From NCBI GenBank assembly GCA_023920165.1, contig CP089279.1:1364001-1428000 (forward strand): a stretch of DNA of 64,000 nt. The letters run 5' to 3'. Below are positions 1 to 19,298 of the stretch, piece by piece (position 1 is the stretch's first letter; each line of letters begins with the position of its first letter). The notes below the pieces were generated by a model, which was given only the letters and a program-made list of their open reading frames with translations, searched no databases and was not told the origin of the DNA. This DNA comes from Curvularia clavata (taxonomy: Eukaryota). Both the position numbers and the translations under genes were made by a program.

Positions 1-456
1 AACTCCGTTTACAAGAACATCACAGTTGTTTCTCCTGGTCATAACAAATGAATCCTGGCTTCGAGAATCCGGGCACTATGTCCATCCGGTTTAAGATCGT
101 AGCGTTTTTAGTCGTGTTTTGTTGAAAACCCGAGGTTTTCCTGATCGTCAAAAGGTGTAGTAAGCCTTGATAGACCCACGTATATTGATGTGTACAACTA
201 TTTACTGGCTCAGAAGGCGTAGATCAGAACTCAGGTGACTGTTATGGTAAATATTACGCACTTGATTTTGCAAGAAGTTGTAGATGCCTATGCTTGGGAG
301 GGAGGCAGATGTCTTCTAAATTTTATTGGAGCTCTATCCGGTGCACGTTGTGAGAGCGATATCTCTGTCAGAGCAGCATACTCATAGTTTGTTGGAAGAC
401 ATCTTAGTACTAGTGTATTGTTGGAGAAATTCCTCACTTGGGTGTTGAGTGATATA

Positions 457-1895
457 CTATGAGCTGATGCTTGGTCCCGAGTCGAATGAGTTGGAATCTC
501 TCGGCTTCTCTTCCTCATCTCCAATCACAAAAGGATCAAACTCTTCGCCTTTCACATGCCCATAGCCCTTCCCCGTGTTGTTGCGCTTCGCAAAGATCAT
601 AGTGCCTATCGCCAACATCTCGAAGAGAACGATCGCTGCCCACAGCAAACGGAAGCTACTGCTTTTCTTCCCGTGTAATAGTCCTAGGAAGACGTTTCCG
701 TTGAGAGCTACAAAAAGTGTTCGGCCAAGATAGATATGAGCCAAGGAAGATGTAGTACGCTCCCCATACTTGACGTAATTGATGTGATGTTTGTAGCCAA
801 AGATAATTTGAATAGGCACTCCGATAGCGATCGCAAGACCGATTAACTTGTGTATCGAGGTGAAAGTCTCAATCTTTGTAGTGTTAGCTGAGTATGACCA
901 CTTTTATGGATTGAAATTGCATACCTGAAATATATGTGTGCTTTTCAAAATACCGATGAGACAACCAATCAGCAACCCGAGAGCAGAGAGAGCTTGCACG
1001 ACCCAATGACTGTGAAATGCCAACTTGAAGCCGCTGCGGATCAATAAGATTCCAAGGCAGTTAAGGATGACTGAAAAAGATAATAACAATCCGTGCGCGT
1101 CCCACATGTTGAAAGACTTTGGAAAGGCTGGTCTATTGAGTCCAGAAAACTCTATAGCGTGAATCGAAGAACGATCTGCAGTTACTGTTGGAAACTCCTC
1201 AATCTGATTCGTGGAAAGTGCCTCGGCCATATTGACCGATTTAAGGCCTGTAGTAGAGTCATGAAAGTCTGTTCTAAGATAGAGGGAGTAATAGCTTACC
1301 GTAATCTGTATGCATATCCAGACGCAAACTTGGGTCGCCAGTATTGGTCTTCTGTGCATAGCTGCTCGCGAACAGCCATGGCTGCTTTTCGCTTGTTGCG
1401 TTTAGTGGACCAAGTCCGACCGTTTCACATGAGTAGCAAATGGCCTGTAGCACATGAAATCCGTTTTGATCGATTTTCGTGCTGTGAACATGAACTTGTC
1501 TCTGGTTCTTGAGTGGATGGGGAGGATGGTGCTCGATGGTCGACCGCAATGACAACATCATGTCTGCGATATGTTAGCATACCATCGAAGACGGATCTGG
1601 GTATTGAGCCCTCACCACCTTCATATTCTCCTGGCCATAGCACAAACATCAAAGCTCGATCCATATTGTCTCCCACGGCAAAAGCTGCCCAGCCGCTGCC
1701 TTCATGAAATTTGACGGAAAATGTCATGAAAAGATCATGCCCCCTTGCGTGCTGCGACTTTACAGTTTTTACAGCCAGACATGCATCCGAGTGCAGTGCT
1801 GGTTCGATATGACATATCTGTACTGGTTCTGACCCTCGGCAAATATGAATTACAAAAAAGAGCAATATGAGGAAGACATTAGCTTGTTTCATCAT
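457..1895 (-). CDS. Signal peptide + CDH-like heme-b cytochrome (DOMON/AA8-type) domain fused to a cytochrome b561 transmembrane domain
   Basis: Spliced from ORFs 1425-1955, 1274-1561, 904-1359 and 457-819 with GT-AG introns 1564-1615, 1248-1299 and 874-924. Hydrophobic leader MMKQANVFLILLFFVIHICRG; an upstream in-frame ATG also exists at 1955. CDH-cytochrome motifs GWAAFAVGDNMDRALMF (Met ligand), CYSC and LDMHTDYG (His ligand). Four b561 histidines on TM helices: DAHGLL, SHWVVQ, SIHKLIG, LAHIYLGR. Confidence 0.85.
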
Positions 1896-2203
1896 TGCGT
1901 ATGATTGTTGTACTGAAAGAAGATTCTGAGCTGCGCTTTCTCTTTTGGAAGCCATATGGAATAATGCAGGTAAAGTCTCGGCTCCAGTTGTTGGAGCTAA
2001 CTCGAAATGGTAACTTGTGGTCCTGTAGTCAGCGTCTTACGAAGTGACTAGGGCTGACTATATCACAACAATTTGCGCGCGCATGCAATGACAATAGAGA
2101 CTCAATTCTGAGTGCCCATTTCCGAATTCTGCTCTTGAAAAACAGTCTTCTGAACACTCATATACACCCACACAACTTCTAGGCTTTCGGATCCCTTTTC
2201 GCA

Positions 2204-3001
2204 ATGGTGTCGTCTTCTTTGCCTAAATCTGTTCCGTTCGCAGCACGCCAACGCAAAGTTCACATGTCTCTAAATTACCCAAGTTTCGTCAGAAGACCTA
2301 TCACGGTGGTAGCAACTACTGTCCGGTCCCTTTTCGTACGCCCGACAACGTACCCGAACTTCACATCATCCTCTACTTCAGACGAAAGCGAAGACATACC
2401 TACCCGGCTCAACAAAAACGAATTGAACGTAACAACTAGAGTCAGGCGCCTCCAGTATTCGGTACTGCCCTATTTTCTGAATGTTTTGCTGGCAGTGGGG
2501 CTCACAATTATTGTGGGATTTATCTTCCGTCCTTTTCCACCGCATGGGCCTAAGATGAAGACATTAAGCTGCGGATCTACCCCGGCTGAAGCGCGCAGCA
2601 ACGGTTGCACATACGATGTTTTGGGAAATATCTGGGTCCCCACTCCCTGTCTTGACACGGAAAACCTTGCCGACTTCAAGCGTATGGCTCCCTGGCTGGC
2701 ATACGACTCTGCCAACGCGACTCGTCAGCTCACAGAAGAAGAGATGTCGGAATACCTGATACCTGATGGCTATTGGACACCAGTACGGGAGCACATGATT
2801 CATTGTGCTCTGATGTGGAGAAGATTGCACAAGGGATTTGAGTTGGACTCAAAGTTGTTGGATAAGCACGTTCTTTCAATGCACCATACCGAGCATTGCA
2901 GCTTAACTTTGATGGAGCATCTTGATATGCCTACCTCTTTTCTAGATGAAATACGTACACGAACAGAGGCAGGGTATTCTAGTTGTCAGGTTCCTGCATA
3001 A
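2204..3001 (+). CDS. Membrane-anchored double-HxxHC protein 1 (DUF3328/UstYa- or PhomB-like putative copper oxidase)
   Basis: Intronless 265-aa ORF (alternative start 2264). One TM helix (YFLNVLLAVGLTIIVGFIF), motif CGSTPAEARSNGCTYDVLGNIWVPTPC, then HMIHC and HTEHC. Confidence 0.85.
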   Translation: MVSSSLPKSVPFAARQRKVHMSLNYPSFVRRPITVVATTVRSLFVRPTTYPNFTSSSTSDESEDIPTRLNKNELNVTTRVRRLQYSVLPYFLNVLLAVGLTIIVGFIFRPFPPHGPKMKTLSCGSTPAEARSNGCTYDVLGNIWVPTPCLDTENLADFKRMAPWLAYDSANATRQLTEEEMSEYLIPDGYWTPVREHMIHCALMWRRLHKGFELDSKLLDKHVLSMHHTEHCSLTLMEHLDMPTSFLDEIRTRTEAGYSSCQVPA

Positions 3002-3830
3002 ATAGTTCTACGGTGTTGTATTTAGTTCTCATTTTAGGCTGCGAAGACATTTTGGGATGCAGATGCCTGGTTTGCGCAAGCGCGAAATGGACATTGACAA
3101 TGAAATGAGCAAACCAAAAGATTCCAGCGGAAGCACGGTTTTCAAGACTTGCTTCGATTTACGTGAAGTATGAAACGTGAGTGTACATGGAGTAGAAAGG
3201 TCGGTTCTCTGGAGTCGCTGCTCAAGCAAACTTCAGGCCGAACATCTCTCAACCCGCTTTCTCTGTTATGACCTAACTATGAACCTATTTAGCGGCGGGT
3301 TTTTAGACGTATCCAATAGGATTTCTTTCTCTTCCTTTTTTTACTACAATGTCGAGGAGTTGCTGAAATACTGTGCCTTAGCCTCGCAGTATGCCAAGTC
3401 AGGACCATCACCTATCGGGTCTTCGACAGGCTAGTAATATCCACAGAAAGTAATGAGAGTGCCGTCAGCAAAGATAGTAAACATGTAAGTCCCGTTGCCG
3501 ACCAGTAAGGTTGGCATCTTACACATGTGCTTACTAAACCCTTGTAGTAAGCTCTTCTTCTAGTTACCCAAGACCCATTACTGGCCACTCAGCCGTGAGA
3601 TGTATCGACACTAGATGGTGGGTTCATACGGGCTACTGATATGGCAGTCCAGACATTGTAGCGCTACCTGTCTCTTTTGAATATCTGGATTCTACGCCAT
3701 GTATCTTAACCTTTAACACACTTGGGCGAGCTCCGAACAGTTAAGGACTCAGCATCATAATCATCGAAAGCCAAAGTCTACTGATATCTCTCATTGATTT
3801 TGGAGCGACCATACCTCCTTGGATGCTCGC

Positions 3831-5388
3831 ATGATGGATGCCGAAGCGCTCACGGAGTCGTCATCGAAGCAAGGGCATCGAAAGCTATCCACTGCATCAC
3901 TGGTGGCCATGACATGTGGAGTTGGGGGGTACGCCACACATTGCAGCAATAACATTGTTTGTTCAACTAATCTAATTATGCAGACTACAAGTTCTTTGGT
4001 CCACAATCTTTTCCCATGGTTCATCCTACCTTTTCTCTCTCGGAATATCCGCAACCCAGTCATCGCTCGTATGGGCAGTTGCGCCAATTTGTGGCTCGGT
4101 CATTCAACCTGTTATCGGTGTCATCAGTGATCTTTCGCATATTTCATGGGGCCGACGGCGACCATTCATCATTGGAGGAGTAGTTTCGATCACTTTCGCC
4201 GCCACAGCATTAGCCTGGGCTGAAACCGTTTCAACAGTTTTTTGCACACTGTTTGACATCAGTAACACCGAAGGCCAGTGGGGAACCGTCACACGTTTTG
4301 TCGCTATCATGTCAATTATCCTTCTCAACGTTTCGATTCAGCCTCTTCAATTGGGCCTTCGCTCATTGATTGTCGACATCTGTCCGCAGGAACAACAAGC
4401 TATGGCAAGCACATGGGCAAGTCGGTTTGCTGGTGTGGGAAACATCATTGGCTATGTCCTTGGGTCCGTACCGCTTCCTTGGATATACAGCGATTATGAG
4501 GCCATGCGTTTCCGGTATATGGCTTACTGCGCTATCCTCGCGCTCATCACCACATCGCTATTCAATTGCTATTATAATGAGGAGCAAGATCCACGCATGT
4601 CAATGTACGAGCCAGAAGATGAGCGACAAACCTATCGTATCGTCCAGTACATTGCAGATAGCTTCTTGCAGACTTCAAAGAGGGTACGACGCGTCTTTCT
4701 CGTTCAATTTTTCTCCTGGACTGGGTGGTTCGGATTTCTGTTCTACAGTACAAGCTTTGTTGGAAAGCTCTATGTCGACGAACAGGTAAAAAATGAGGTT
4801 ACAATAGGCCCATCACTCAAAGACCACGGAATGATGCTAGGCGCCAGAGCAAGCTTGCTTTTCGCCATTGTGGCATTAGCAACAAACATCGTGTTGCCCA
4901 ACCTCTCCCAAATAGGGAGATCGGTGATAGCAATGGCCAAACCTCATAGGAGAAGAGGGCATAACTCCTCCCCTCATTTGAGTATCATCTGGGGCTTTGG
5001 CCAAGTGGTTTATGTGATAAGTGTTTTGTCCACGACTGTAGTGTCTTCAAGCACAACAGGGACGTTCTTGGTCGCCATTGCAGGGTTTTCATGGGGCGTC
5101 ACTCAGTGGGTACCTTTTGCCATAATTGGAGAGGAAACAGCAAGGCGATGCATTAACGATGAATCCTCTAAGGAAGAAAAAGATGATTTATGGAGTATGG
5201 CACAGGGCGGCAGAATCATGGGTTTGCACAACGCTGCCATATCCGTACCGCAGATCATTGCTGCACTGATCAGTACTGCGATTTTCTGGACTGCACAAAA
5301 GCTGAATAATGAGAATGCTATAGTGTGGGTGATAGGTTGGACGGGCATTCCTGGAGCAGTAGCTGCGTGGCTTGCTTTTATGATGTAG
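3831..5388 (+). CDS. MFS transporter, SUT1/SLC45 (GPH; sucrose/alpha-glucoside permease-like)
   Basis: Exon 1 3831-3928, intron 3929-3983, then LQVLWS...VIQPVIGVISDLSHISWGRRRPFI running into ORF 4309-5388. Motifs LRSLIVD, VQFFSWTGWFGFLFYST, WVPFAIIG and GLHNAAISVPQIIA are typical of SUT1/SLC45. Confidence 0.88.
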
Positions 5389-5475
5389 ACAGGTCAGCAA
5401 ACTGAAATAGATTTCAAGACTAGTCGTTCACGATGCAGCCCATTCTCGACCACAATTATTGAACATTAGTACTCG

Positions 5476-6474
5476 TTACGACTTGAATTCCATGTCAGCG
5501 CCAGCTCGTATTAGCATGTCCACAATCTCCACAAAGTCATGCTCTATTGCTACATGCAACGGCGTCTCTCCTGCCGCATTGATAGCATTGACATCCACGC
5601 AATGCAACAAAGCAAATGAAACCAAGGACACGTGGCCAAACTGCGCAGCGAGATGTAAAATATTGTTTCCGTAATCGTCTATAATGTAGACGTCTGCTCC
5701 GTTCTCAACGAGAAGCTTCGCAATGCTATCGCGACCCCTTATCACAGCTTTCTGTAAAGCGTTTAGACTTGAAGAATGTGAGGAAGAAGTGGATGTCGAT
5801 GACGGAGCCGTGGATTGAGCCTAGTTGAGACCCTGTTAGTAACCCCGCACGAGCAACACTGAAGCGAAAAGATTGTAGTGGACATACAAACATGAGGATC
5901 TCGTTATCTAAATCTGTTAGGGGCGTTGCTAGATCAAATACAGTAGTGGTTTCGCTCTTTTGTTGCGAAACGATGTTGCCCTTGTCCTGATTTGACATTG
6001 ATGATACATCTTCTATTTCTTCTGTGCTGCTGAACAGGAAAGATTGAGCAGAAGATTCATCGGATGATCTTGCCGCTGGGACATGGATTGGCTCCAAACT
6101 AGGCAATTTTGCATTCGGAGCCGCAAGAACGACTGAATCTCGGCGGGTCTGCTTGAGCTGTCTTGAATCTTTAGGCGGTGTTTGACAGGACTGCTGTTTA
6201 TCTTTGGGTGTTGATGGATTTTCCGATAAGCTTCGATTGAACACTTCCAATTGCTGCAGTCGGCGCTTGATGTTACGGCCTAAGAGATTAGTCCTACATG
6301 AAGTATACTTGGAGTTAGTTACTCACGATAGTTGCGCTGCGCAATTCGATTTTGCACTCTTCGTCGTTCATTGGCATCGGTCAATATCCTCCAATCCTCG
6401 TCTTCCTCTTGCCGCGCCATGACTTCTTGGATTTCTTTTGATGGCATTGAAATCTGGTGATATTTGCGGCTCAT
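5476..6474 (-). CDS. bZIP basic region + C-terminal ankyrin repeat transcription factor (bANK, ToxE-like architecture)
   Basis: Exon 1 6474-6327 encodes EDWRILTDANERRRVQNRIAQRNY. Intron 6280-6326 joins it to RRNIKRRLQQLE. A second intron (~5821-5887) joins to ankyrin repeats ALQKAVIRGRDSIAKLLVENGAD, GNNILHLAAQFGH and GETPLHVAIEH. Confidence 0.88.
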
Positions 6475-7260
6475 ACTACCAGAATGATAGTGAGTTAAAA
6501 ACTAGGTATTCAATTACCCGAGATCAATGTGTAAATCGGATTTAGTGGATTGTCCGTCAGGCAAACTACGGCCCCATGTTGTTTGGATGATCCGATTCGC
6601 ATCATCTGTTCATTGAGTATTGAACAATGATCTTATTCCAGGATGTAGCCCTGACTTCGTGCTTACCTTAATGTGGGGTCTTTCGGTCTTGCTTAATTTA
6701 AGGTGGAGATGATGTGCATTACCTGTCGTCAGATACGACTGACCATACAGGGGGGAGTTACACAACTTTTACTTGGCTAAACTTCGGATGGAGCGAAGCA
6801 GTTGTATTCTAACCTGGTTTGGCAATTGTCGCTAGAGTCCGACTATATTGGCGTGTAAGGTGGCAAAACTGACGCTAATTCTGAATTAGAGCTGTTTGCT
6901 CAACTAGGCCTGACTCCGCGGCCCGAAGTTATCAAATATTTCCGTCCGGCGCAATGATAAAGCGATCGGTGTGCCTGAATCATGTTAGGAAGTCTAACGT
7001 GTACTGCCAGGTCACACGGCGTATGTACCTAGGCGAATAGTGAGACTTATTAGTAGATGAACCTGTTAAGAGAGAACAATTGCTGAGTAAGATGTGTCAG
7101 CGTCCGAGTGTCCGCACAAGATCACTACTCAAGTAGCATTTGACAGCTTATCGAGACAAATATTCCTATGATAAAGGCCAATTACTTGATAGAGCCAGCC
7201 ACCATTGACATTCTAATCTAACTCATCTCTTTCACTGGGGGATTCCAGCGACAAGTCCTG

Positions 7261-7986
7261 ATGCCTGGGTTGTTTCATTCACCAAAGCCTAGTGATAGGA
7301 TACTACCGCGCAATGACAATGGTCGCCAAAAATTACTTCCACAAGACTTGGAAAACCAAGACATATTACTTGAAAAGACTTTTTTAGAGTCGCTGGGGCC
7401 CAAATTCCACCGGAGCATAGCACACATCAACGCAGCAGTTGTGGCCCTGTTCCTTTTTACAGTCGTTGCTGGATCGCTCGCATGGCTAGGCGTATCTGCG
7501 ACGCTGCGGACCGACGATGCACCGAAATCATCGAAGCTATACACCGATTGCGGCAGCAATCACTCAACAGCCATCGCAGCTGGCTGTGTATACGATATCG
7601 TTGCCCCCCAATGGACTCCACCAGAATGCTACAATGCACCCCTGTCCGAAGAGTATGCCAGAAAGATTCCGAAACCTATGTTTTTCCGCTGGCCGAACCT
7701 CACAGAGCCAATACCGGAAGATCCATTGGAGATTTCACGACATGACACAATCTGGACATTTGATGCATATCATACCATGCACTGCGTATATATTCTTGAG
7801 CTTGCAGCATTGGCAGCAGGGATGGCTTCTTCTGGGCAGCAAGATGTTTTCTTGAACCACATTGCGGCAAATTCTAAGCACACAAAGCACTGCACCGAGC
7901 TGCTTTCTGGCAATAACTCCTCTCCAGGCCCTACGGAAATTCATCGTCCTGGAGCTGCGCTTCGCTGCAAGAGACTGGAAACTTAA
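7261..7986 (+). CDS. Membrane-anchored double-HxxHC protein 2 (DUF3328/UstYa- or PhomB-like)
   Basis: Intronless 241 aa. TM helix AAVVALFLFTVVAGSLAWLGV; motif CGSNHSTAIAAGCVYDIVAPQWTPPEC; HTMHC and HTKHC. Confidence 0.85.
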   Translation: MPGLFHSPKPSDRILPRNDNGRQKLLPQDLENQDILLEKTFLESLGPKFHRSIAHINAAVVALFLFTVVAGSLAWLGVSATLRTDDAPKSSKLYTDCGSNHSTAIAAGCVYDIVAPQWTPPECYNAPLSEEYARKIPKPMFFRWPNLTEPIPEDPLEISRHDTIWTFDAYHTMHCVYILELAALAAGMASSGQQDVFLNHIAANSKHTKHCTELLSGNNSSPGPTEIHRPGAALRCKRLET

Positions 7987-8752
7987 CGAATCTGTATTTA
8001 ATAGAAATTTCTCATACACTTCGTAGTCTTCATCGTAGAATAAGGAATGGTAGAGGATGAACATCGTGAACCTGCTTCAAAGGATGTAAAAACGTCATGC
8101 TTCCCTAGCTTAAGCACACACTGATGCCGATAACTTCGGACTTTCTTTTTGGCCTGTGTAGATTGCTGCGTTTGAGAGGAGTCTTCGGAGTATCTAGCCG
8201 CTCCTAGACTGCCACCGAAAGCTAAATTCAGGTTTCCATGGCCATAATGATACGTTCTTGGCTTCGGCGATCTGACTGATGGAAGCCTATACGTAGGAAG
8301 TAAGTGTACGCGTTGCGTACCTACGTATGTAGACAAGCGACCTGTCATGCCAGTCAGAGATCAGGAGACACTTCATGCCAATGATCATCTCTACGTAATT
8401 CCAAGCACCTGTATGTACTTTGTAAGCCAACGAGACAAATAATCTCGCCGTGACGGCTCGGCGTGCGGTGATAATCGGGCCGGCGATGACTGGAAACGTC
8501 TCTGTGCGTAAGGCAAGTCTCCCGCACCTTCCGCACTCAATACTCCTTACAGCACGCGCATGAAAGAGGGTTTCCGGTGAGATTTTTCGCAAACTGCGAC
8601 AAACGGTCACACTAATGTTGCCATCCTAACGCACTAGACATGTACATACATACTATATACCAGCGTTCGCCAAGAGCGTACCAGTGAAGATACCTAAGCC
8701 TGCTGGGCAACCTTGGCGTGCGTCTGCAAGTCTTCCAAACCATGCCAAACAC

Positions 8753-8785
8753 AGCTAACTAAGCTAACTAAGCTCACTAAGCTCA
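8753..8785. repeat. 9-bp tandem minisatellite (AGCTMACTA), about 3.7 copies
   Basis: AGCTAACTA AGCTAACTA AGCTCACTA AGCTCA read directly. Confidence 0.8.
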
Positions 8786-9753
8786 AGCAGCTACTGCGTA
8801 GTAATTTCGCAGCCCTATCTAGAGGAGACTAACGTTCCTGCAGAACTAGTGAAACATATGCATGCGCACGTCTCTGAACATCATCTTGTCAATCAATGCT
8901 GCGATCACCAAAGCGCCTCGGGGGCCACGTAGGCTCTCCACAAATCCTACCCACAGATCTCACATTTCTCTTGTTCGATCTAAGATGGTCCTGCTCGATT
9001 GGTACTTAGAGATTACAATAAAGAAACGCACGGATAAGCATAAAGCAGTAGAGTGGCTGGCAAGCGCATTCGTAACGAAAGCAAGGCGAGACCGTCAAGA
9101 GAGACTAAACCATGCTCACTAAGAAGGAGGCTCTCTGCGGCTACGGATCTGCGCCTCGGGCCGAAACATTATACACCTACCGGTTGCGAGAATCCATGCA
9201 TTACTACCATGCGGACTAAGACAAACTTGACCTACTCTACAGTTAGCTAAATCTTACAGTACACCGACTCTGATCAAATGACCCCCTACTCAGCAACAGC
9301 TTACTACATGTTAGTCATCGGTACGTTATTGTCGGCTCGATGTTTCATTCCTCTGATAAGTGATCGCTATTGTTACGTCATCGTATGAACAGCGTCTCGA
9401 TCTTCTCAAGCTTGCAGCATGGAAAACCGTCGTCAAACTCGTTCCTTGAACATTTCAAAATACATCTTTACTTTCAATATAGCGAACCAGCTCTTGCATT
9501 GATTTGCCCTACTTGCTACATCGGGAAAGGGCTTTCCATACAGCCCCTACAACCCAGAGACGATACGCGCTAGATACGGTCGCCTCCAGGAAACAGAAGA
9601 TTGTTGGGAAGAGCCATTGAACCCAACCGTCCCGAAAAAACGTCTTGAAGATCCTGCTTTGTCAGTACAGTCTTTTGTGCTTTTAGCAATAACAAGCAAA
9701 CCCGGGCTAAGGAACAATCATCGTGTTTTGTTCAAGTCAACAAAGCAATCGAA

Positions 9754-10458
9754 ATGATGGGTTCCTTCTTGACCAAGTCTTCACGACACGACAGTGGAAA
9801 AACATACATCGCCATACCCAACCCTGAGTCTGGCAACCCGTCGGATCTTCGCAGCAGAGAGAGGCACAGGCGCCTACCAACCACTGTTGTCGTAGTATCT
9901 GTTACCGCTGTTCTGATACTGCTTGTTCCAGTCTCCTACTTCCTTTTTGCCACAAGCATGCAAAGTAGCGCATTCAATCACACTACCCTGCGCCACCAGC
10001 GTGATGATAAAGGCACATTTATAGCCTGTCCAGAAGACCCTGAATCAGCACGGAAATCAGGCTGTTCTTTTGATCTTCTCGCCAACGGTTGGGTCCCCGA
10101 CCCGTGCTTCGACGCGGAAATGCACCACGACTTTGTTGACGGCAAGGACTACGGCTTCTTCGAGGATCGAAACGGGAAGCATCGAGTGCATCAAGACACG
10201 GTTATGGAGGGTGATAATAGCCGGTACCCACATGGGCTCTGGGTGACGTTCGAAGAACACCACACTCACTGTCGTTACCTGGTCAATGGATCCATCAGAG
10301 CTGTCTCGCGACTCCACGCACCTTTCCTCGACGTGTACCTGGATCGGGATCACATGATCCATTGTTATGGAGTTCTTGGAGAAAATCGAGCTTCGTCTCA
10401 TATTGAGACATATGTCAAGGCGTTCTTTGAATCTCGCAAATGTTACCTTCGTGATTGA
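9754..10458 (+). CDS. Membrane-anchored double-HxxHC protein 3 (DUF3328/UstYa- or PhomB-like)
   Basis: Intronless 234 aa. TM helix VVVVSVTAVLILLVPVSYFLFA; motif CPEDPESARKSGCSFDLLANGWVPDPC; HHTHC and HMIHC. Confidence 0.85.
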   Translation: MMGSFLTKSSRHDSGKTYIAIPNPESGNPSDLRSRERHRRLPTTVVVVSVTAVLILLVPVSYFLFATSMQSSAFNHTTLRHQRDDKGTFIACPEDPESARKSGCSFDLLANGWVPDPCFDAEMHHDFVDGKDYGFFEDRNGKHRVHQDTVMEGDNSRYPHGLWVTFEEHHTHCRYLVNGSIRAVSRLHAPFLDVYLDRDHMIHCYGVLGENRASSHIETYVKAFFESRKCYLRD

Positions 10459-11014
10459 ATGTAACTGCACTTCTCTACTGTCTGCTGTTAGTAGCAATCT
10501 CTAGCTTTGATGCCCTAGGGAACTTGTTTATAGAGTTCAGTTTTTTTTTTGAAAAACAATTATCTTACTGCCATATGCACGACGCTTCTTATGTGAACTA
10601 GTAACGTGGCCTCTACTCGTTCGGACTTCAGATCTATCAAATAATTGTCTTTCATCCCGTGATCAAGTGACGATTAGCGCTCAAGATGGCTGCAATACAC
10701 ATCTGAGTGGAGTAGTTGCTTAACTTATTGCCCTTATTAAGTGAAAGTGAACACTAGCTTGGGATTCAGCTTAATAGGTTGGTGTGCATTTCTTATGTGT
10801 TTGGTTGAGAGTTGGACCTATGTGAAGAGTAGTAGAATAGCTAGGAGATAGAACCTAGAGCGGATTACTACAATCGAAACAGACTGTCTAACTTAACTAC
10901 TCTAACCACTTTGTCCCTCTCCACTAGTACAGTAGCGCTGCGTTGAGCCATTGTTCGTTGAGATGGGAGAGATGTGCAAGTTTGGTGGGGTGCGGCGCTC
11001 GCCCGTGGAACACG

Positions 11015-13370
11015 TTATGTCAAGTCTATTACGTCTTTTCCTCCAATAAGCCAGCACGACATGTCCCCCGTGGTCATTACGAAACCTAGTCGTGAGAAAG
11101 TGCCATCGGGATTCTTCAAGACCAGGAGACCTCTAAGGTCTAGAGCTTTGGCAATCGCTAGCACGAAGAGCCCCTCTGTTTCTACGTCAACATCTCGATC
11201 CAGCATGGCGAGACAAGTCCGTATCTGGTAGTCTCCGCTGCCATCGTCGTTGATGAAGACTATGTAGCCTCCACTATGTTGTGGACTGTGCGTAAGGCTA
11301 ACGGGGGTTAGAATACCGCGAAGTTTGAGGACTCCTTCAGCGACAGCGCCAAAAACACTGTCCGAGCTTCCTCGAGTGATGTCGACTTCGAGACATTCTG
11401 CACATAATACGTTGCCGGGTTCCGATTGAAGGTGAACGGGTTTACTAACAGCAGCCCATGACCAGGACGGTGCTGGTAGCTTGTCGTTAATGCCGAGGGC
11501 TGGTTCGCAGTCCCGGACATACCAAAGTAATGTCAAAGGTAGTGACGAACGCCACAGACCTGCAACCTGTAGAATTACTTAAGAGTCAGCTTGGTGATAG
11601 CTTGATGTAAATGCCGGTATGAGGCGTAAGGTTGTGAGCGTGTTAGAGTTTGTGAGTGTGTAGAGTTGGATAAATACCAGGACTTACGTATACATCGTTG
11701 AGACCATCCGCCCAGCGTTGTGCTATGCCGGCCAAAGCGGGTAGTCGATCTCTGGGGTAGCGCAACGTGCGTTTTGTGAAATCATTGATCAAGTTAGCCC
11801 AACCGCTCGACCAGAATTCTCTATCTGTGTTAAATTGGATACTAGTCGACCGACGAGAAAGAGGTTTATATCTCTCACGGAAAGATGAAACGTCGGTGTC
11901 ATTTAAACAAGCCCAGGTGATTTCTGTCGCACGAAAGGAAATGGTTCGTCGAGCTAACAGGTGCTCCTGAAAAGTCCAACCGCGGTTTGAAAGCGGTTCC
12001 TGATGCTCTGCAAATACAGAGGACTCCTGCCCAGCGAGATGCCCAGCGAGAATAATCTTATCACTTTCCGTTGATTGTCTCCTGCGCAACTCGAGATTAA
12101 CATTTCCCCCCATTTCGAGAACCCAGAGAGCATCATGTTGGTATATTGTGGTATCAAAATTCAAAAATCCTTCATTACCACGGAGGCGCGTGAAGCTTCG
12201 ATGGTAATGGTGGCATTCTCGAAGATTCGACCCATCTGATCTATCTCGTGATTTTTATCCGCGCTATTGTCTTGTATGATGCACAATGCGTCAATCCAAA
12301 GATGCGGAATTTCAAGTCCTTCAGCTACGATAATGGCGTCTTGAATAGTCTGTGGCAAGCTGAAAACATCAATGCCTTGTTTGTACTGTTGTAGGACAGC
12401 ATTAGTTAGCCAACCAGGCTGTTCGGCAACGCCCCAGCAGTAGGACAAAGCAGCATATGAAGACAGCGGATCCCTTGGCTCGATCAGTCGCACTTTTTTC
12501 GCGGTTTCATTGGAACGAATCTCGAGGACTCGAGTAGGTATCTGTTTACATAAAGGTCAGTGGTGATCTATTGGCGCAACAAGAGACAATCACTGCTGAT
12601 CATCGTTTCAAGTAGCTTTTTGACATGGGTAGCTGTTCAGTGACACAACGTACAAAAGAGCTAGTGCTCTGCGCACAGTTGATGTGCTCCTTTGCACAAG
12701 TGTGTAGCCAGGCACGTGTCATATTTAATACAGCTTCCAGCGAAGAGCTTCTGTGTAGAAGATGGCTTTGTCCTAGTATGGGTAATCAGCCAAGCCAACG
12801 ATTATATACCGCCAGATACTTACTAGAGGGTACCCACACTGAGAATTCCCGCTTGGAAAGCAAAGGAAATTCTAGCATTTCAATCCAAAGAGTGGAATCA
12901 TCGGAATCATCGGAATCATCGATATCATCGGAATCATTGAAATACTTATCACTAAGCTTGAACATCTCCAAACAAGCGATTCCATCCCCAAAATCAAATG
13001 ATACGAAGTATTCTGTCCAGAACTGTCTGTCGCCGTACAGCTTATGAAACCCTTCAATTATTGTCTGACAAAACGAACAACCTGTAGATACTCCATGTTG
13101 CAGGTCATCGCCATTGAACCGTAGGATTCGAGAATATATATAGTGCTTGTCTCTTATAGCATCTAAAAGTTTACTGTAATTTGGGTTCTGAAGCTCTTCC
13201 ATTGGATCCCGCACGCGCTCATCATGTTGAAGAAGCCAGAGCGCAATGTCTCGAAAGTACTGCTCCTGCTCCGCGGTTGTCGGTTCGCGAAATCTTTCGG
13301 GCGGCGGCGGAAACGGCGTGGAGGCGTGATGACGACAGGTAATAGATGGTATCAATGGAAGTTGAGTCAT
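11015..13370 (-). pseudogene. HET-domain (heterokaryon incompatibility) protein gene with an apparent 1-bp frameshift
   Basis: Motifs in order: WLHTCAKEHINC, IPTRVL, YAALSYCWG, LPQTIQDAI, LWIDALCIIQD, QMGRIFENA, PLSNRGWTFQE, DRLPALAGIA, Y/VAGLW, APSWSWA. Three GT-AG introns splice in frame, but the frame shifts at ~12180: GNEGFL lies in another frame and a premature TGA occurs at 12161-12163. Confidence 0.8.
12895..12939. repeat. 9-bp coding tandem repeat (DDSDDIDDSDDSDDS) in the HET gene
   Basis: Repeated tcatcggaa/tcatcgata units. Confidence 0.75.
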
Positions 13371-16172
13371 GACGGTCGAGTAGTCGTGTAGAGTCGTATT
13401 ATGAGAGTTGGTGAGGAGGATTTGGCTAGCAGGCTGGGGAAGGAGATTAGCAACATCTCGGCAAAAGTTACACAACCTAACCAATATGAGGCGGCGAATC
13501 AGGCCTAACCAATATAAGGCCAACTCTCTTTAAGTACTCTCTCTCACAAGTTCTTCTCTTACACAGATTGATACTTAGTTATTCTGTACACCAATAGAAT
13601 TATTTTTATTTATTTTTTGGTTATATCTATATTTATCGGAATCGCCAGACAACTACCTCGAGGTATACTTCGCAGATACTGGTTTTGCCCTAACCCGGAC
13701 CGAGGCTAGGTAAGTATATCCCTACTAACGCAGAACCCATGTAACAAGTAGACATCGTTGTATGTAAAGAGAGAAGACAACGTGAACCCTGTTCGCCTTG
13801 AATTTCGGCTATGGAAACTACTAATGAGAGAAATATACAAGACGAATGGTTCCTTTGCATTATCCGTGCTCGTGCCGGTAACGATACGCCCGGAGGTACT
13901 TCTTTGTGAAGCTGGGTTCATAGCGCAAACATTTTGGCGGCAGGGTAAGCTCGAACATCCAGACAACTCGGAACAATTTGATTCAAGCTTACCACTCGAA
14001 CACGTTATGTATATCAGATATGCTGAACATTTGAAATGCCACGAGGATTGTCAATGCACCGCAGGCGATTGGTTGAGATGCGGTCAGTTCTATCTCACCA
14101 GAACTGGAAAAAGAATTGATTGTTCCCGATACATGATAGTTCCTATGTATCATTTTACTCTCCCGAAATAGCAGCATGCAGCGCACTGCATCAATGCCAT
14201 GATGGGGTCGTCCACTTCGGTATGCCTGAGAATGCTCGTCGAGATATTCATGGAACGGGAGAATACGCAATGCTATGCTACTTTCGCTTTTGTTCAAGCT
14301 GTATTACATGGTCTTGGTTATGTCCTTCTCATGAGAGGTCGCGGTTGATCCATACCTTTGTGTGGGTTAGTGAGATCTTAGACTGCTTTGCTTGAAAGAA
14401 TTGGGCGCCGCTCAACCAGAAATCCAAAATCCAGGAAATAGGATAAACAAATATACATAATGTAATTTCTTGATTCCAAGGACAGCATGTGTAACTCCTG
14501 TCGAACTGATTGTGCAGGGGTAGTTCGGTGGTTGTCGGGTAAAAGAGAGTCAGACGGGAAGCACAGGCTGTGGAGTGTCTTGTGAACCATTCCACAGATG
14601 CGAGTCGCCATTCCAGGACAAATAAGTTTGTGTCAGGCACAAACAAAAGAAGACAAGTTTTGCGAACACTAGATCACGGGCGATAGGGTAGTCAAGTGAT
14701 CCCCTAACCAGACCCTTCCATCTAAACACCAACCTAGTCGCACACATGCATTGCATTCTTTTGCGCAACACATACCTAACACTACATCATTATCCTAAAT
14801 TATAGCTATGGCGTTAGAAATTAATAAAGCGAGATCTAAGACAAAGCTTAAGACTAGTCACCAGCCTTCAGCATCAAGTTTGAAGTATACTAGAACGTTA
14901 CTCTCCAATAAATACTCACAAGAACTATAGTACCTCTAGGTACCATCAGATAAGAGATCATTGCAGAATCTATACAGTTTTAGAACCCCAAAAAACTATA
15001 GAAAAAAATAACCAGAATTTAATATTGTTCCGCTCCCGCCCAGCAGCATTCCAAAACCAATACCATAGGATCTCAAAGTCACGAGTTTGCCTTTTGCGAC
15101 ACTTCTCCCAGTCGAGCCAACTAGGACGAAAGTGTTATAAGCTCAATGATGCCATGGTGCACTGATCACCGAAGAAGCGCCACAAGAGTACTCAAAGTAG
15201 TAAGTGGTCATTGCGCAGATAATCATTGCGCCAGAAAGACCGCACGGTGTCGGATCTCCACGTTAAATTATGAGGCGGAACAAGGCCAGGGTATCTATCA
15301 CAGTATCTGCGCAACTTTTGTCTCTGCTTTCTAGAGAACTCTTAAAACTTTTTGCGATTTTCTGCAAATAAACACTAACACTAGCAGGGGTTATTGCCCT
15401 TGGTTACTTGTACCATCAGAGAGACAAGGAAAAAGAATATAAGAATATAGCCACCGAATTCATGTGTCGAATGTATAACGCAACGGAGTCGTCCTTTACG
15501 CCAGCACTATGCAGCATTGCTAGCAGTACACGGTTACGGCTGATCCAACAAACCAATGTGTGCTGTCAATTCAATTAAGCCTATCTTTGACATTACAAGA
15601 TTGACTATTACTTACAGAACCAAAATGGCCTCGTAGCAAGTTATCAGAGCTCATTTTATGCCCTAGCATGTAATCAAACCTTTGTGAGGACAGTATATGA
15701 TTCCGAGTACATAAGGGATCGGCAAGGAAGCCTGCGAGAGAAGAGAAGAGAAGAATCACCTATCACACTCTTTAGCGATTTGCATGCGTGGATAGAAATC
15801 AGGAGTTAGAGTGACACTTGACGTGTTCCTCTACTATCAGTGTCGACATTGAAAAAGATGCAAGAGAAGCGGCCTGACTATTCGATCCAATTAAGCTAGC
15901 ACAACAAGTGATTCGCAGGTACAGGATTGACTGTTGCAGGTGAGGCCACGGACTCGGAAAGAAGCATGATGAGGCTTCCGTGATAGAATAGAATAGAATT
16001 GACGGCTGAAATAATAATAATAAGAGTCTCCTTGCTTCACAGCAATCCAACCATATCCAATGCACATCATGTTGTAATCCCAGTGACAAGTGCGACCGCC
16101 ACGTTAGAGGCCGGTAAACCACAAGAAGGAATCTTTCGCCATCGCATAACTTCGGAGATAATTTACAAGAAG

Positions 16173-16469
16173 TTATGTCTGCTTAGCACGGCAGCTGCTG
16201 TCACTGCCAGTTGCTCCAGCGAGCTGACACCATTGTCGCCAGCTGCAGTTGCTGTGTCTGTAATCGCCCTGCCCCTGGCATTCGCGTGCACCATCCGATT
16301 TAGGACCTGGGTTGACCATGGCACCATTGGAACCGAGGCCTCTGCAAACAGCCTCCGTAACCCGGTCATTCGGTACGCCGTTAGAGTCGTAGCAATGGCA
16401 ATACTGGTAGGTAGCACATGCTTGTGCCGCAATGGGCAAAAAGACAAGAGCAAGGGCTGAGAACTTCAT
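16173..16469 (-). CDS. Small secreted cysteine-rich protein (98 aa, 8 Cys), effector-like
   Basis: Intronless ORF with signal peptide MKFSALALVFLPIAAQA, 8 Cys in the mature part and a TATA element ~150 bp upstream. Confidence 0.85.
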   Translation of the reverse strand: MKFSALALVFLPIAAQACATYQYCHCYDSNGVPNDRVTEAVCRGLGSNGAMVNPGPKSDGARECQGQGDYRHSNCSWRQWCQLAGATGSDSSCRAKQT

Positions 16470-16608
16470 TTCGAATGAGATATCCTTGAAAAGCTTGTTA
16501 GTAGAGAAGGGTTAAGGGGGAAAGCGGGCATACTTGAAGGGTGTTTGAGTTGATGGTCGGTTTGGAATTGATCAGTGGCGATGGAGTTATCACTGAAGGA
16601 GAAGCAAT

Positions 16609-16620
16609 CTGATACTTATA
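16609..16620 (-). promoter_or_regulatory. TATA-containing element TATAAGTATCAG upstream of the Cys-rich secreted gene
   Basis: Reverse complement of ctgatacttata, 151 bp upstream of the ATG at 16469. Confidence 0.6.
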
Positions 16621-18406
16621 CACAACATTCACGCGGCTGATATTGGAAAATAACCGTAGCTTGGGCTAATATAGAGACACGTGGGTGACTTTCTCAGTGA
16701 CAATGTCTCAAATAACCGACTCAGCGGCAAGAGAAACTATTCTCTATCCCAAATCAGCAGGTTGCACGACACTGAAGTGGGCTGAATAGACGCTATCAGT
16801 ACTGGAGTCGTCTGGAATGAAATCGATGAGTTTTACGGCACTCTAGTTGCACCTAGGCCCACGTTTGAACGCACCAGCCATCAATCCAAGAGAGAGAGTC
16901 ATGAACATCTCGGGCCGATGGACGCTATGGTATAGTTGTTGTTCAATGACCCTGGACCACTCTTGCTCTATGGCCAGTGTGAGATGATTACTTCCCCAGA
17001 AAACCCACCGCCTTGAAGCTCAGCCAAAGCCAAGCTCCGAAGTATGGGGTGTGTCTCTTAGGCATCCGATGAACACCAATAAGAGCGCGTTTCTAAGATA
17101 AAGAATGCGCAGTACAGCACTGCTTAACATCACGTTCGACTTGTTCAGAAAGCGAGAGGGCTATTATAAACTACACTACGAGATCCAATGATTGCATAAA
17201 AATGTATTCCATCGTGGGGGTGTTGTGCCCCTTGACGTCGGCAAAACATCGGAGCCCTTGATGCGCGTCAACGTAGAACATTCCGTTATCATAGCCGGGC
17301 GTATTGTGTGCAAGATAGTTCCACTAGCTTCAATTGCCCCTAGAAATTTCAAGTCTCCGGTTCCTTGCCAAGCTATACAACTTGGCTATCTCATTCCGTT
17401 TTGGCTGGGGGTTCGGCGGTGCTGCCGTTGTTTCGGACCGAGTGAGGCACAGACATGCCATGCCGACTCTGGAAGCAGCACGTTCTGGCACCCTGCTGGC
17501 CGATGATTCGCCATAACAATGCCTCCTTCGTAGCGTCATCTGCAAATTTCCTTCTCCATAATCTGTTTCCACAATTTCACCGCAACCGGAACGCAGCATT
17601 TTAGTTACCTGCGATGTCTGAACTATGATTTTTCCCAGTAAGAGGCACAAATTGAATGTGTACACCAGGCCAGGTTGGAGAACGGTTCAGTCACAAATAA
17701 AAGTGAAAACGCTGTATATTTTTCCTCCATAGCAGTTTGAGGTATTTTGACATGGCGCTCAGCCGCATCCTAGCGCTCTTCAGTAGCCAAAACCTCCTAG
17801 TTAGGAGATGTGCAGATGCCCCACTGGCAAGTCACCGAGCTCTAACTGCTAATGGAAATATCAGACTCCAGCAATCAAATGTTGGATGGCCAGTGAGTTC
17901 AAACCGCTTGCTTGGAATGTGATCTGCAGTCATTCAAAGAATCACCTATCATCACGTCATGTAACTCGCCATGTCAAACTGAACTATTTTATCCGAAATA
18001 TCTTGTCATTGTGTTGTCATTCTTCATCTCGATCAATGTAAAAATTAAAGGACGAAAACAAAAACTGGAAGCACAATGGCAAATACATATCTGACGAGCA
18101 CAATGAAAGACACATTACAAGCGAAACCCGTGACGGTAAAACTAGTATCATGTTCTGGAACAATGAGCTCTAGATAGCGCCATTCTGCACTCGAGTAGGG
18201 GTCATGTGATGCGTCTAAGCACTATAATAGGCCACTGTTAAGTCTGCAGGCTAACTTGAAGAGGCCATTTCATACGAGTCAGAACTGATTGTGCTCCCGA
18301 TAACTCGAACTTCTTGGGAGGAACAACACCAAGCACCGGCTAATCATGAAATAGAACATGGCAAGTGGAGCGGCGCTGAAGTGCAACATATGGAGAGGAA
18401 TCAGTA

Positions 18407-18418
18407 TATAAGTATCAG
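18407..18418 (+). promoter_or_regulatory. TATA-containing element TATAAGTATCAG upstream of the secreted pre-pro-protein gene
   Basis: Read directly, 147 bp upstream of the ATG at 18554. Confidence 0.6.
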
Positions 18419-18553
18419 TGATAGTCAGCAAGAAAGAGACATCCCTCACCAGGACATCTGCACTCAAACACACTCTCAATCGAGATACTCTTCGCTCTCA
18501 ACGCACCTTTTCGTCTCCTCAAGAATCACTCTTGTCTATCAACTCCCATCAAA

Positions 18554-19298
18554 ATGCGTTTCCACGTCCCCTTGATCGTTGCGGCTGCCGCCCTCACCAG
18601 CGCCGCTGCTCTTCCCCAGCCCGAGGCCATGGAGGTCACTGTCAGCGTATGCTACCCATATTTCACTTCTTACTCCCTGTTCTCTAACAGAGTTTAGGAC
18701 GGCCTCTCTGCCGAGACCATCGAGATTCCTGCCGAACTCGACTTGGAGAAGCGCCAGCAGATTCCCAGCGCCAACGCAGCCGTCATTGGTGACCACGCCG
18801 GCGCTGCTGGTCAGGCTGTAGGCAGGATCCTCAACGCCCTGCTTAACAAGCTCTGTAAGTTTGCTCCTCAGCACATCATCACCATTACTAATGGATTATA
18901 GTCCCGCTCAAGGACTGGACGCCTGCCCGTGAGACCTTCACTAAGCAGACCACGTCATTGATGTGGTCCTCCAACCCTGACCGCCGCCGCTGGGTCGCCG
19001 TTGTTTGCTACAACAAGGGATGGGACGTCAAGGACCGCCGCCAAATCTCTGATGTTGTCAGCATGCAGCTTCGTCTGGGTGCTCTGCACACCGACTACGA
19101 CTGCATGTACATTGGCCGCAACAACCAGTTCTACACCCAGAGCGATGGTGGCTACATTAACGTAAGTTGACCCCTCGATTCGTTTTTTCGCTCTCAGTAC
19201 TCAGAGTTGAATACTGACATGTCTTATAGCTTGCCTACGTCTACGACGGCAGCATCTGCAGCTACGACGGCAATACCGGTGACCTTACTTGCAACTAA
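18554..19298 (+). CDS. Secreted pre-pro-protein (~192 aa) with a Kex2 site (LEKR), function unknown
   Basis: Four exons; introns 18647-18697, 18855-18901 and 19162-19229 are all GT-AG with branch sites. Product MRFHVPLIVAAAALTSAAALPQPEAM...ELDLEKR/QQIPSAN...WTPARETFTKQT...CYNKG...TDYDCMY...DGGYINLAY...LTCN*. Strong C-ending codon bias. Confidence 0.88.

Follow-up and report, generated by a model that had tools for sequence, protein, structure and literature searches.

Which substrate is served by three double-HxxHC oxidases that are encoded together with a membrane cytochrome in the genome of Curvularia clavata, and from where could such enzymes draw their electrons? The stretch analyzed here, called the window throughout, comprises 64,000 nucleotides of this fungus (positions 1,364,001 to 1,428,000 of contig CP089279.1, assembly GCA_023920165.1). 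A first-pass annotation, made from the sequence alone, had described six genes within positions 457-10458: the oxidases Ox1, Ox2 and Ox3, a CYBDOM protein with a DOMON-type and a cytochrome b561 domain, an SLC45-type transporter, and a bZIP-ankyrin regulator. It had left the substrate gene to lie to the left of base 1, to lie elsewhere, or not to be of the ribosomal peptide type at all. We favor the reading, at a probability of roughly 0.6, that the six genes make up the right-hand part of a cluster of seven genes for a peptide made on ribosomes and modified after translation (RiPP) of the kexin-processed protein (KEP) type, so far found only in Pleosporales. The seventh gene, a repeat precursor, was found next to the CYBDOM gene in relatives.

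All six genes proved to be real, intact and transcribed, with the domain types and positions that had been assigned to them, and the divergent pairs CYBDOM/Ox1 and regulator/Ox2 are present as described (Table 1). The absence of nonribosomal peptide synthetase (NRPS) and polyketide synthase (PKS) genes from the window was likewise borne out: no open reading frame (ORF) of synthase size was found anywhere in the 64 kb.

Table 1. Features of the window, of the orthologous Alternaria-like contig L003, and of gene neighborhoods in related fungi
Feature	Position or identifier	Strand	Details
CYBDOM	457-1895	-	exons 1895-1616, 1563-1299, 1246-925, 873-457 (stop included); 427 aa
Ox1	2264-3001	+	single ORF, 245 aa; type-II membrane protein; motifs H177/H180/C181 and H208/H211/C212
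SUC/SLC45-like (GPH-type MFS) transporter	3831-5388	+	exons 3831-3928, 3984-5388; 500 aa
Basic-region + ankyrin (bANK-like) factor	5476-6474	-	exons 6474-6326, 6278-5887, 5819-5476; 294 aa
Ox2	7261-7986	+	single ORF, 241 aa; double-HxxHC membrane protein
Ox3	9754-10458	+	single ORF, 234 aa; double-HxxHC membrane protein
GCT[T/G]ACTACA motif	156-165	-	within the 456 bases to the left of CYBDOM; spacer towards the precursor in relatives
GCT[T/G]ACTACA motif, G-variant	2024-2033	-	CYBDOM/Ox1 divergent promoter
GCT[T/G]ACTACA inverted pair	3529-3552	.	upstream of transporter gene; orthologous pair at ~L003 11471
GCT[T/G]ACTACA motif	9299-9308	+	upstream of Ox3
HET-domain gene	11015-13529	-	PF06985, 88.8 bits; right of cluster
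Housekeeping genes	from ~20 kb on		eIF2D, triose-phosphate-type transporter, Sey1, tubulin, RPB2
Repeat precursor gene	L003 7173-6365	-	three exons, 227 aa; ~1.0 kb past the CYBDOM stop, same strand
A. panax neighbors	G6011_04368, G6011_04369		locus tags
A. alternata neighbors	OAG17158 (Ox1), OAG17159 (CYBDOM)		accessions
A. alternata neighbors	KAH6862692 (Ox2), ..95 (Ox1), ..96 (CYBDOM)		accessions
A. tenuissima neighbors	AA0119_g9609 (Ox2), g9612 (Ox1), g9613 (CYBDOM)		locus tags
Plenodomus neighbors	NX059_006005 (Ox3), 006011 (Ox1 paralogue), 006013 (Ox1)		locus tags

The gene models were checked with RNA contigs from four runs (X14, X16, X17 and X19), which were aligned to positions 1-14000. 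At least three of the runs (X14, X16 and X17) are RNA, because their contigs contain spliced joints; in X19, spliced joints were found in the neighboring HET gene. The three CYBDOM introns were all confirmed (joints 873>925, 1246>1299 and 1563>1616), as were both introns of the regulator (5819>5887 and 6278>6326), and the joined models of the two genes contain no internal stop. The transporter intron was placed by its GT..AG ends and the reading frame, without an RNA joint. Contigs cover Ox1, Ox2 (7233-8013), Ox3 (9790-10530) and part of the transporter gene; other parts of that gene and the stretch 8407-8873 have no cover in some runs. In run X14 the HET gene had no contig; CYBDOM, Ox1, the transporter, the regulator and Ox2 all had contigs, as did the sequence immediately upstream of Ox3. 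In X16 and X19 the HET-gene contigs were far deeper than those of the cluster genes. Contigs cannot rank the expression of genes, and these data therefore show transcription and splicing, not co-expression. A spliced joint with CT..AC ends, typical of a minus-strand intron, was seen in X16 at 10268-10322 inside the 3' part of the plus-strand gene Ox3; it suggests an antisense or read-through transcript from the side of the HET gene.

The first-pass annotation had assigned the three oxidases to DUF3328 (PF11807). A search with the family's hidden Markov model did not uphold this assignment, since all three proteins stayed below the cut-off of 25 bits: Ox2 reached 20.6 bits (E 4.5e-4), Ox1 10.6 bits (E 0.5), and Ox3 had no match. 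The HxxHC(x)nHxxHC pattern of DUF3328-type copper oxidases is nevertheless present in each protein, with 26 residues between the motifs and one N-proximal hydrophobic segment. Because motif and architecture agree while the curated PF11807 test failed, Ox1-3 are placed by their sequences in an unannotated sister family of UstYa/DUF3328. In an alignment of 18 sequences C103, C115, D118, W124, P126, C129, H177, H180, C181, D200, H208, H211 and C212 (Ox1 numbering) were invariant. Among 150 sequences the six motif residues H177, H180, C181, H208, H211 and C212 were conserved to at least 90%, with C181 invariant, and the C-terminal cysteine C241 was also conserved to at least 90%. The motifs are preceded by a conserved Cys-rich stretch, C..GC.[YF]D....W.P..C, and the extra cysteines C103, C115, C129 and C241 appear compatible with disulfides.

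A profile of the family matched three of the 898 six-frame ORFs of the window, exactly Ox1, Ox2 and Ox3. Searched against 1.84 billion representative proteins, it found 2171 at E ≤0.001 and 1597 at E ≤1e-10. Ten members that were looked up were unnamed or "hypothetical"; the named ones came from Aspergillus, Dendryphion and Xylogone. PF11807 was the sole Pfam family that matched more than one of the 150 members scanned, and it matched 14 of them at E ≤0.01 (best E 1.5e-4). In an Atlas search 17 unnamed Ascomycota clusters came first (0.95), and the UstYa cluster, the first named family, followed at 0.84. Pairwise identity among Ox1, Ox2 and Ox3 is only 21-29%, and in a tree of 162 rows they fell into three separate supported subclades of 34, 5 and 18 rows, respectively. 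Judged by sequence, they are old paralogues brought together in one locus, as in phomopsin-type clusters. One family member, P0116 (Xylogone sp., 527 aa), contains two matched stretches, that is, two double-HxxHC domains in one chain, and may be a natural fusion of two dimer halves.

The AlphaFold2 (AF2) model of Ox1 (mean pLDDT 70.8) has pLDDT values below 50 at residues 1-59, a transmembrane (TM) helix spanning 68-88, and one motif on each of two adjoining helices, 174-194 and 206-219. The model thus shows the DUF3328-type layout of a disordered N-terminus, a single TM helix and motifs on paired helices, with a presumed membrane orientation. No solved structure was matched by the family profile apart from one chance row (E 0.66), and a Foldseek search of the Ox1 model against the PDB gave no match at E ≤0.001. 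VIA-align wide returned no Z ≥5 among 48,161 chains. Neither structure search says anything on fold novelty. According to the published account of CctR, the cyclochlorotine hydroxylase, this DUF3328-type oxidase is a disulfide-linked homodimer with two copper ions per monomer, bound by the motif, and its reaction needs O2 and electrons (PMC12435403). The disordered N-terminus, the one TM helix and the luminal helical domain described there for CctR, ApnU and AprY recur here (PMC12435403), as do HxxHC(x)nHxxHC on two helices and the conserved C-terminal cysteine (C241). The family differs from CctR in the extra Cys-rich stretch before the motifs and in its marginal similarity to PF11807. In that account copper binding, dimer formation and activity are demonstrated for CctR only (PMC12435403). 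By analogy, Ox1-3 would use copper as well.

The precursor was found in three near-identical Alternaria-like metagenome contigs (L001-L003). Exon 1 of the gene in L003 encodes a typical signal peptide, and the precursor has a pro-region that ends in KR. Of the KR-bounded core QKKIDAVDVE there are 15 copies, 6 of them in exon 2 and 9 in exon 3, some preceded by an X-Pro dipeptide (EP, SP or MP); Tandem Repeats Finder reported a 36-base unit in 15.9 copies. L001 and L002 contain the gene as well, at 99.7% identity to that of L003. None of the 15 repeat units contains F, Y or W, and the core QKKIDAVDVE was found in no publication of the library searched. The window itself has no match to the repeat core, so that the precursor is not within the 64 kb, and tandem-repeat scans of the window returned short non-coding or unrelated repeats only. 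A blastn search of positions 1-460 against the loci of the relatives gave no match; the spacer is too diverged to serve as an anchor. By position, the C. clavata copy would start ~550 bases to the left of base 1, and we infer from the relatives that the precursor is present in this genome. Among the places proposed earlier for the substrate gene, weight has accordingly shifted to the left of base 1, through the KR-repeat precursor ~1 kb beyond CYBDOM in L001-L003 and through adjoining accessions in A. alternata and Corynespora.

These accessions carry a published label. In Table S2 of the KEP survey (Umemura 2020, PMC7329392), OAG17160.1 of A. alternata is entered under KEP type 63 and as lacking a DUF3328 neighbor; it is the accession directly after the CYBDOM accession OAG17159.1. 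The Alternaria rows of this table hold 14 type-63 entries, 13 of them without a DUF3328 flag (PMC7329392). Among the 14 entries in these rows, at least 8 have accessions within 3 of a CYBDOM accession, and at least 1 more lies within 2 of an Ox1 accession. Corynespora PSN64614.1, also listed as type 63 (PMC7329392), is two numbers from the Ox1 orthologue PSN64612.1. Type 63 may range beyond Alternaria and Corynespora. As its methods are described, the survey applied hmmscan at 1e-5 to the 15 nearest genes (PMC7329392). With E values of 4.5e-4 or worse, the oxidases of the sister family were therefore missed as neighbors of type-63 KEPs, and the published call of no DUF3328 nearby for this type is corrected here. 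The stretch 6738-7133 (-) of L003, within the precursor gene, has a weak Pfam match to DUF3563 (E 0.0026). In the published table 8 of the 14 type-63 KEPs of Alternaria also have DUF3563 marked next to them (PMC7329392); because the label recurs in this way, we take the match to be a repeat-driven artefact and a handy tag.

The cluster genes stay together in other Pleosporales, as the first-pass annotation had asked to see, both on contigs and by accession and locus-tag numbers (Table 1), the numbers being only a proxy for gene position. The order CYBDOM(-)/Ox1(+)/transporter(+) is collinear in L001 and L003, both of which end inside the transporter gene; L002 contains CYBDOM and Ox1 and ends before the place of the transporter. 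The AA0119 locus tags of A. tenuissima leave exactly two gene places between Ox2 and Ox1, matching the window. Orthologues of Ox1 with 71-90% identity were found in Alternaria, Corynespora and Plenodomus, and a nearer Ox1 paralogue in Periconia and Plenodomus. Ox2 has orthologues in Alternaria (P0067, P0071, P0077 and P0080), and Ox3 has orthologues at 63-93% identity, including Plenodomus NX059_006005. One sequence cluster at 90% identity mixes Ox3 orthologues (P0054 and P0068) with the four Ox2 orthologues; since Ox2 and Ox3 orthologues are only ~20% identical, a fused or chimeric gene model probably bridges it. On a 19-kb Alternaria-like contig (L003/L005) a second Ox1-like paralogue (50-53% identity) lies at L005 10001-10561, ~14 kb to the left of CYBDOM, and it is also found in L006 and L007. 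The interval between this paralogue and CYBDOM contains the KEP as well as genes for an MFS_1 transporter, an NLR of the NACHT-ankyrin type, a Fic protein and a metallophosphoesterase. In Plenodomus, too, a paralogue of Ox1 is found, at a distance of two tags from Ox1. Tandem-repeat scans beside the paralogue (L005 and L006) revealed no precursor, and the ~14.5 kb to the left of the CYBDOM gene in L003 contain no synthase.

In the pathway that we propose, the precursor would enter the secretory pathway and be cut there by Kex2-, Kex1- and Ste13-type proteases. This processing is implied by the KR and X-Pro boundaries, in line with established knowledge of KEPs. Before or after cutting, the peptide would be oxidized by the membrane-anchored proteins Ox1-3, whose catalytic domains would face the lumen and whose HxxHC...HxxHC motif is the one that forms the two-copper centre in CctR. 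The arrangement resembles the ustiloxin, phomopsin and asperipin-2a clusters in the secreted precursor with many KR-bounded cores (here in relatives), in the presence of several membrane-anchored double-HxxHC proteins, and in having a regulator and a transporter of its own. It differs from them in its oxidases, which do not pass PF11807 and make up a sister family, and in the core QKKIDAVDVE, which has no aromatic residue. Dikaritins are defined by a core Tyr, or aromatic residue, that is cross-linked into an ether macrocycle. No such residue occurs in the repeats of the relative, and the product would therefore fall outside the dikaritins as chemically defined. Tyrosinase, methyltransferase and P450 genes were absent from the stretches examined, unlike in ustiloxin-type clusters, and a CYBDOM gene was present. 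To our knowledge, the ustiloxin, phomopsin and asperipin-2a clusters contain no CYBDOM.

This additional gene leads to the question of the electrons. Cytochrome b561 is a classic transmembrane electron conduit. In chromaffin granules, b561 passes electrons from cytosolic ascorbate to keep dopamine β-hydroxylase and peptidylglycine monooxygenase in the lumen reduced. There the link runs via luminal ascorbate and the genes are unclustered, whereas here the genes are divergent neighbors and a fused heme domain could pass electrons directly. CYBDOM consists of a signal peptide, a CDH-cyt/DOMON-type heme domain and a cytochrome b561 membrane domain. The last exon of the window gene reached 23.8 bits for Pfam Cytochrom_B561 (cut-off 23), and a fragment 20.7 bits for CDH-cyt. 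The Alternaria panax orthologue P0023 (429 aa), which aligns with it end to end in tblastn and is identical in 325 of 430 aligned columns (76%) of the joined model, combines the two domains in a single polypeptide (CDH-cyt 64.2 bits, cut-off 27; Cytochrom_B561 25.7 bits, cut-off 23). A sequence search of P0023 against solved structures gave no match; by structure, the Atlas match was an At4g12980-like cluster (TM 0.60). Proteins combining CDH-cyt and b561 are widespread in fungi, irrespective of clusters.

Because of the signal peptide and the CDH-cyt domain, heme b of CYBDOM and the oxidase domains would share one side of the membrane. The copper centres would need reduction to Cu(I) in an oxidizing compartment, and CYBDOM would supply the electrons along a path from a cytosolic reductant through the two-heme b561 domain and the luminal CDH-cyt heme to copper. 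In the published description of CctR, an accessory protein of unknown identity is proposed to transfer electrons or to deliver Cu(I) within the oxidizing lumen (PMC12435403). A precedent is the cytochrome domain of cellobiose dehydrogenase (CDH), reported as the physiological electron shuttle to the copper-dependent lytic polysaccharide monooxygenases (LPMOs) (PMC10726044, PMC4507011). This system shares with CYBDOM the CDH-cyt domain (PF16010), its heme b, the extracytosolic location and, as described there, the role of one-electron donor to a copper oxygenase (PMC4507011, PMC10726044). In cellobiose dehydrogenase the domain is fused to a flavin dehydrogenase; here it is fused to a b561 membrane domain instead, so that the electrons would come from the cytosol across the membrane, and the acceptor would be a membrane-anchored two-copper enzyme rather than an LPMO. 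The plant CYBDOMs CRR and HYP1 have the same combination of a DOMON-type domain and b561; they differ as cell-surface ferric reductases, for which the accounts at hand name no partner enzyme (PMC10784552, PMC10784544). A complex prediction with two copies of A. alternata Ox1 (60-245) and CYBDOM (20-390) scored 0.00, which is no evidence either way. In the library searched, we found no publication that links DUF3328 or UstYa with b561; the first-pass annotation, too, had known of no description of the combination. By analogy with these systems, CYBDOM is a tentative candidate for the electron donor of Ox1-3, at somewhat less than even odds. Rather more doubtful is the broader proposal that CYBDOM is the dedicated reductase of luminal two-copper HxxHC oxidases and that the sister family is the hidden tailoring machinery of some KEPs recorded as being without DUF3328.

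The remaining two genes of the cluster encode the transporter and the regulator. By similarity, the transporter belongs to the GPH/SUC/SLC45 group: its best solved relatives in phmmer were plant SUC1 (E 6.7e-19) and human SLC45A4 (E 6.8e-18), and it scored 26.9 bits against Pfam MFS_2 (cut-off 27). The regulator would switch the genes on, and co-regulation of the cluster by this ankyrin factor is likewise inferred. It reached 75.9 bits for Ank_2, with three ankyrin repeats resolved by Pfam. A basic region of the bZIP type was recognized by eye only, near the N-terminus in ORF 6319-6501, where an intron splits it; Pfam bZIP gave no match on the exon pieces. With ToxE, Aps2 and Apf2, as published, it shares ankyrin repeats at the C-terminus, a location of the gene inside a metabolite cluster and, putatively, a basic region that lacks an evident zipper (PMC4109984). 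It differs from them in being shorter, in the three ankyrin repeats that Pfam resolves and in the absence of the Tox-box and the Api-box, and the bANK examples described there govern NRPS clusters (PMC4109984). The Tox-box had no match in the window, and the four Api-box matches in the window all lie outside the cluster and are within chance.

A candidate promoter motif was obtained by a k-mer screen. With the four window promoters alone, nothing rose above shuffles; the motif GCT[T/G]ACTACA surfaced once the promoters of relatives had joined the screen, and is thus post hoc. Allowing up to one mismatch, it occurs 9 times in the window, compared with 2.72 expected, and 1 of 100 shuffles reached 9. 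Seven of the nine matches are within the first 10.9 kb (Table 1). The G-variant in the divergent CYBDOM/Ox1 promoter lies in a conserved block, and the same variant is found at the orthologous position L003 9760-9769. Given this post hoc origin, and since the regulator/Ox2 promoter lacks it, the motif is only a lead. Just past the site at 9299, in the region upstream of Ox3, contigs of run X19 skip 46 bases with non-canonical ends (AT..TG, 9316-9363), and X16 has a matching loose end; a deletion in the strain or an unusual intron could account for this.

The first 20 kb of the window have a G+C content of 0.43-0.48, below that of the remainder. The HET gene to the right of the cluster has three introns in the RNA contigs (11565-11685, 12542-12653 and 12772-12822). 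It is followed at 14000-20500 by a gene-poor stretch (G+C 0.43-0.48) with a single ORF of at least 150 aa and no Pfam match, which divides the accessory-like left part from the housekeeping genes. Amid the latter, ~25 kb from the cluster, an 877-aa ORF at 35355-37988 (+) encodes a prolyl-oligopeptidase-family (S9) domain. Peptidases of family S9 take part in some fungal RiPP pathways; this one is probably unrelated to the cluster.

Could these genes be neighbors by descent only? CYBDOM would then be a general ferric or cupric reductase, the repeat protein would yield unmodified pheromone-like or signaling peptides, and the HxxHC proteins would act elsewhere. The characterized CYBDOMs CRR and HYP1 are described as metal reductases (PMC10784552, PMC10784544), and the ubiquity of CDH-cyt/b561 proteins in fungi regardless of clusters, the restriction of the arrangement to Pleosporales and the core without an aromatic residue all fit such a view. 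It also agrees with the survey's figure of 74% of KEPs without a DUF3328 neighbor and its discussion of linear peptides (Umemura 2020, PMC7329392). Mere descent sits poorly, however, with three anciently diverged oxidase paralogues within 8 kb beside a KEP, which is a ustiloxin-type signature, or with a regulator of a type tied so far, in the account consulted, to metabolite clusters (PMC4109984). The transporter, moreover, is of the sugar/SLC45 type and not a metal transporter, and in Plenodomus Ox3 and Ox1 have stayed within nine locus tags despite intervening genes. We consider this explanation unlikely.

In another view, the module acts on a small molecule that the SUC/SLC45-like protein takes up or moves, for example a plant glycoside or some other metabolite that is not a peptide, and the repeat peptide is not the substrate. 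A secreted RiPP should need no exporter, which would leave the transporter otherwise unexplained, and relatives of the transporter carry, by name, sucrose or, in the case of SLC45A4, other small solutes. DUF3328 enzymes are also reported to act on non-ribosomal and polyketide-derived substrates, as with cyclochlorotine and atpenin (PMC12435403). No synthase was found in the 64-kb window or in ~14.5 kb to the left of CYBDOM in the Alternaria-like relative, however, and the precursor is the first gene encountered in that direction, both in Alternaria and, judging from accessions, in Corynespora. Such a role is decidedly improbable. Still further down we rank the possibility that, in this genome, a larger NRPS/PKS cluster of the classical kind lies to the left of base 1 and the six genes form its edge. 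The left flank of the window is unseen, the region is accessory-like with its low G+C content and its HET and NLR genes, and bANK factors are best known, in the literature cited, from NRPS clusters (PMC4109984). In the closest relative with available sequence this flank holds the KEP, the MFS_1 transporter, the NLR, the Fic protein, the metallophosphoesterase and the Ox1 paralogue, and no synthase; an NRPS/PKS origin would be very surprising.

Several points weigh against the seven-gene RiPP cluster itself. The precursor is outside the window, and its presence here is argued from relatives whose proteins are ~74-79% identical. Many KEPs are thought to yield unmodified peptides, and the core without Tyr, Phe or Trp is unlike the cores of the characterized KEP-derived products known to us. 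We know of no CYBDOM demonstrated to serve a DUF3328-type enzyme. With 99.7% identity across the precursor gene, L001-L003 count as one lineage. The carriers are all members of one order, so that the conservation may reflect descent, and the numbers of one A. tenuissima assembly run in an order that misfits a simple collinear map. None of the three oxidases passes PF11807, with Ox3 lacking any match, and no solved structure is similar to the Ox1 model. The contig data cannot demonstrate co-expression, the known bANK boxes are absent from the cluster, and the post hoc motif GCT[T/G]ACTACA does not extend to the regulator/Ox2 promoter. Finally, the characterized plant CYBDOMs are, in the published descriptions, ferric reductases (PMC10784552, PMC10784544).

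DUF3328/UstYa proteins were presented in 2025 as two-copper, O2- and electron-dependent catalysts of hard C-H chemistry (PMC12435403). The combination of a KEP with UstYa-like oxidases is known; new are a family of oxidases that PF11807 does not cover and that numbers some two thousand representative clusters, the non-aromatic core peptide, the clustered CYBDOM and the revised call for KEP type 63. Genome mining based on PF11807 misses this family of at least 2171 representative clusters. Since the survey had scored the precursor as being without DUF3328 neighbors, some "orphan" KEPs may be true RiPP precursors. The core is unusual in being acidic and aliphatic, and the product is therefore probably a new chemotype. 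Divergent from Ox1 and conserved within one order, CYBDOM is a concrete candidate for a donor of the kind missing from the CctR account; if it is indeed the reductase, this would answer the donor question left open for the DUF3328 enzymes. If the sister family is also the hidden tailoring machinery of some KEPs, a class of fungal peptides would open up that are non-aromatic and modified by oxidation, and that escape the mining rules now in use.

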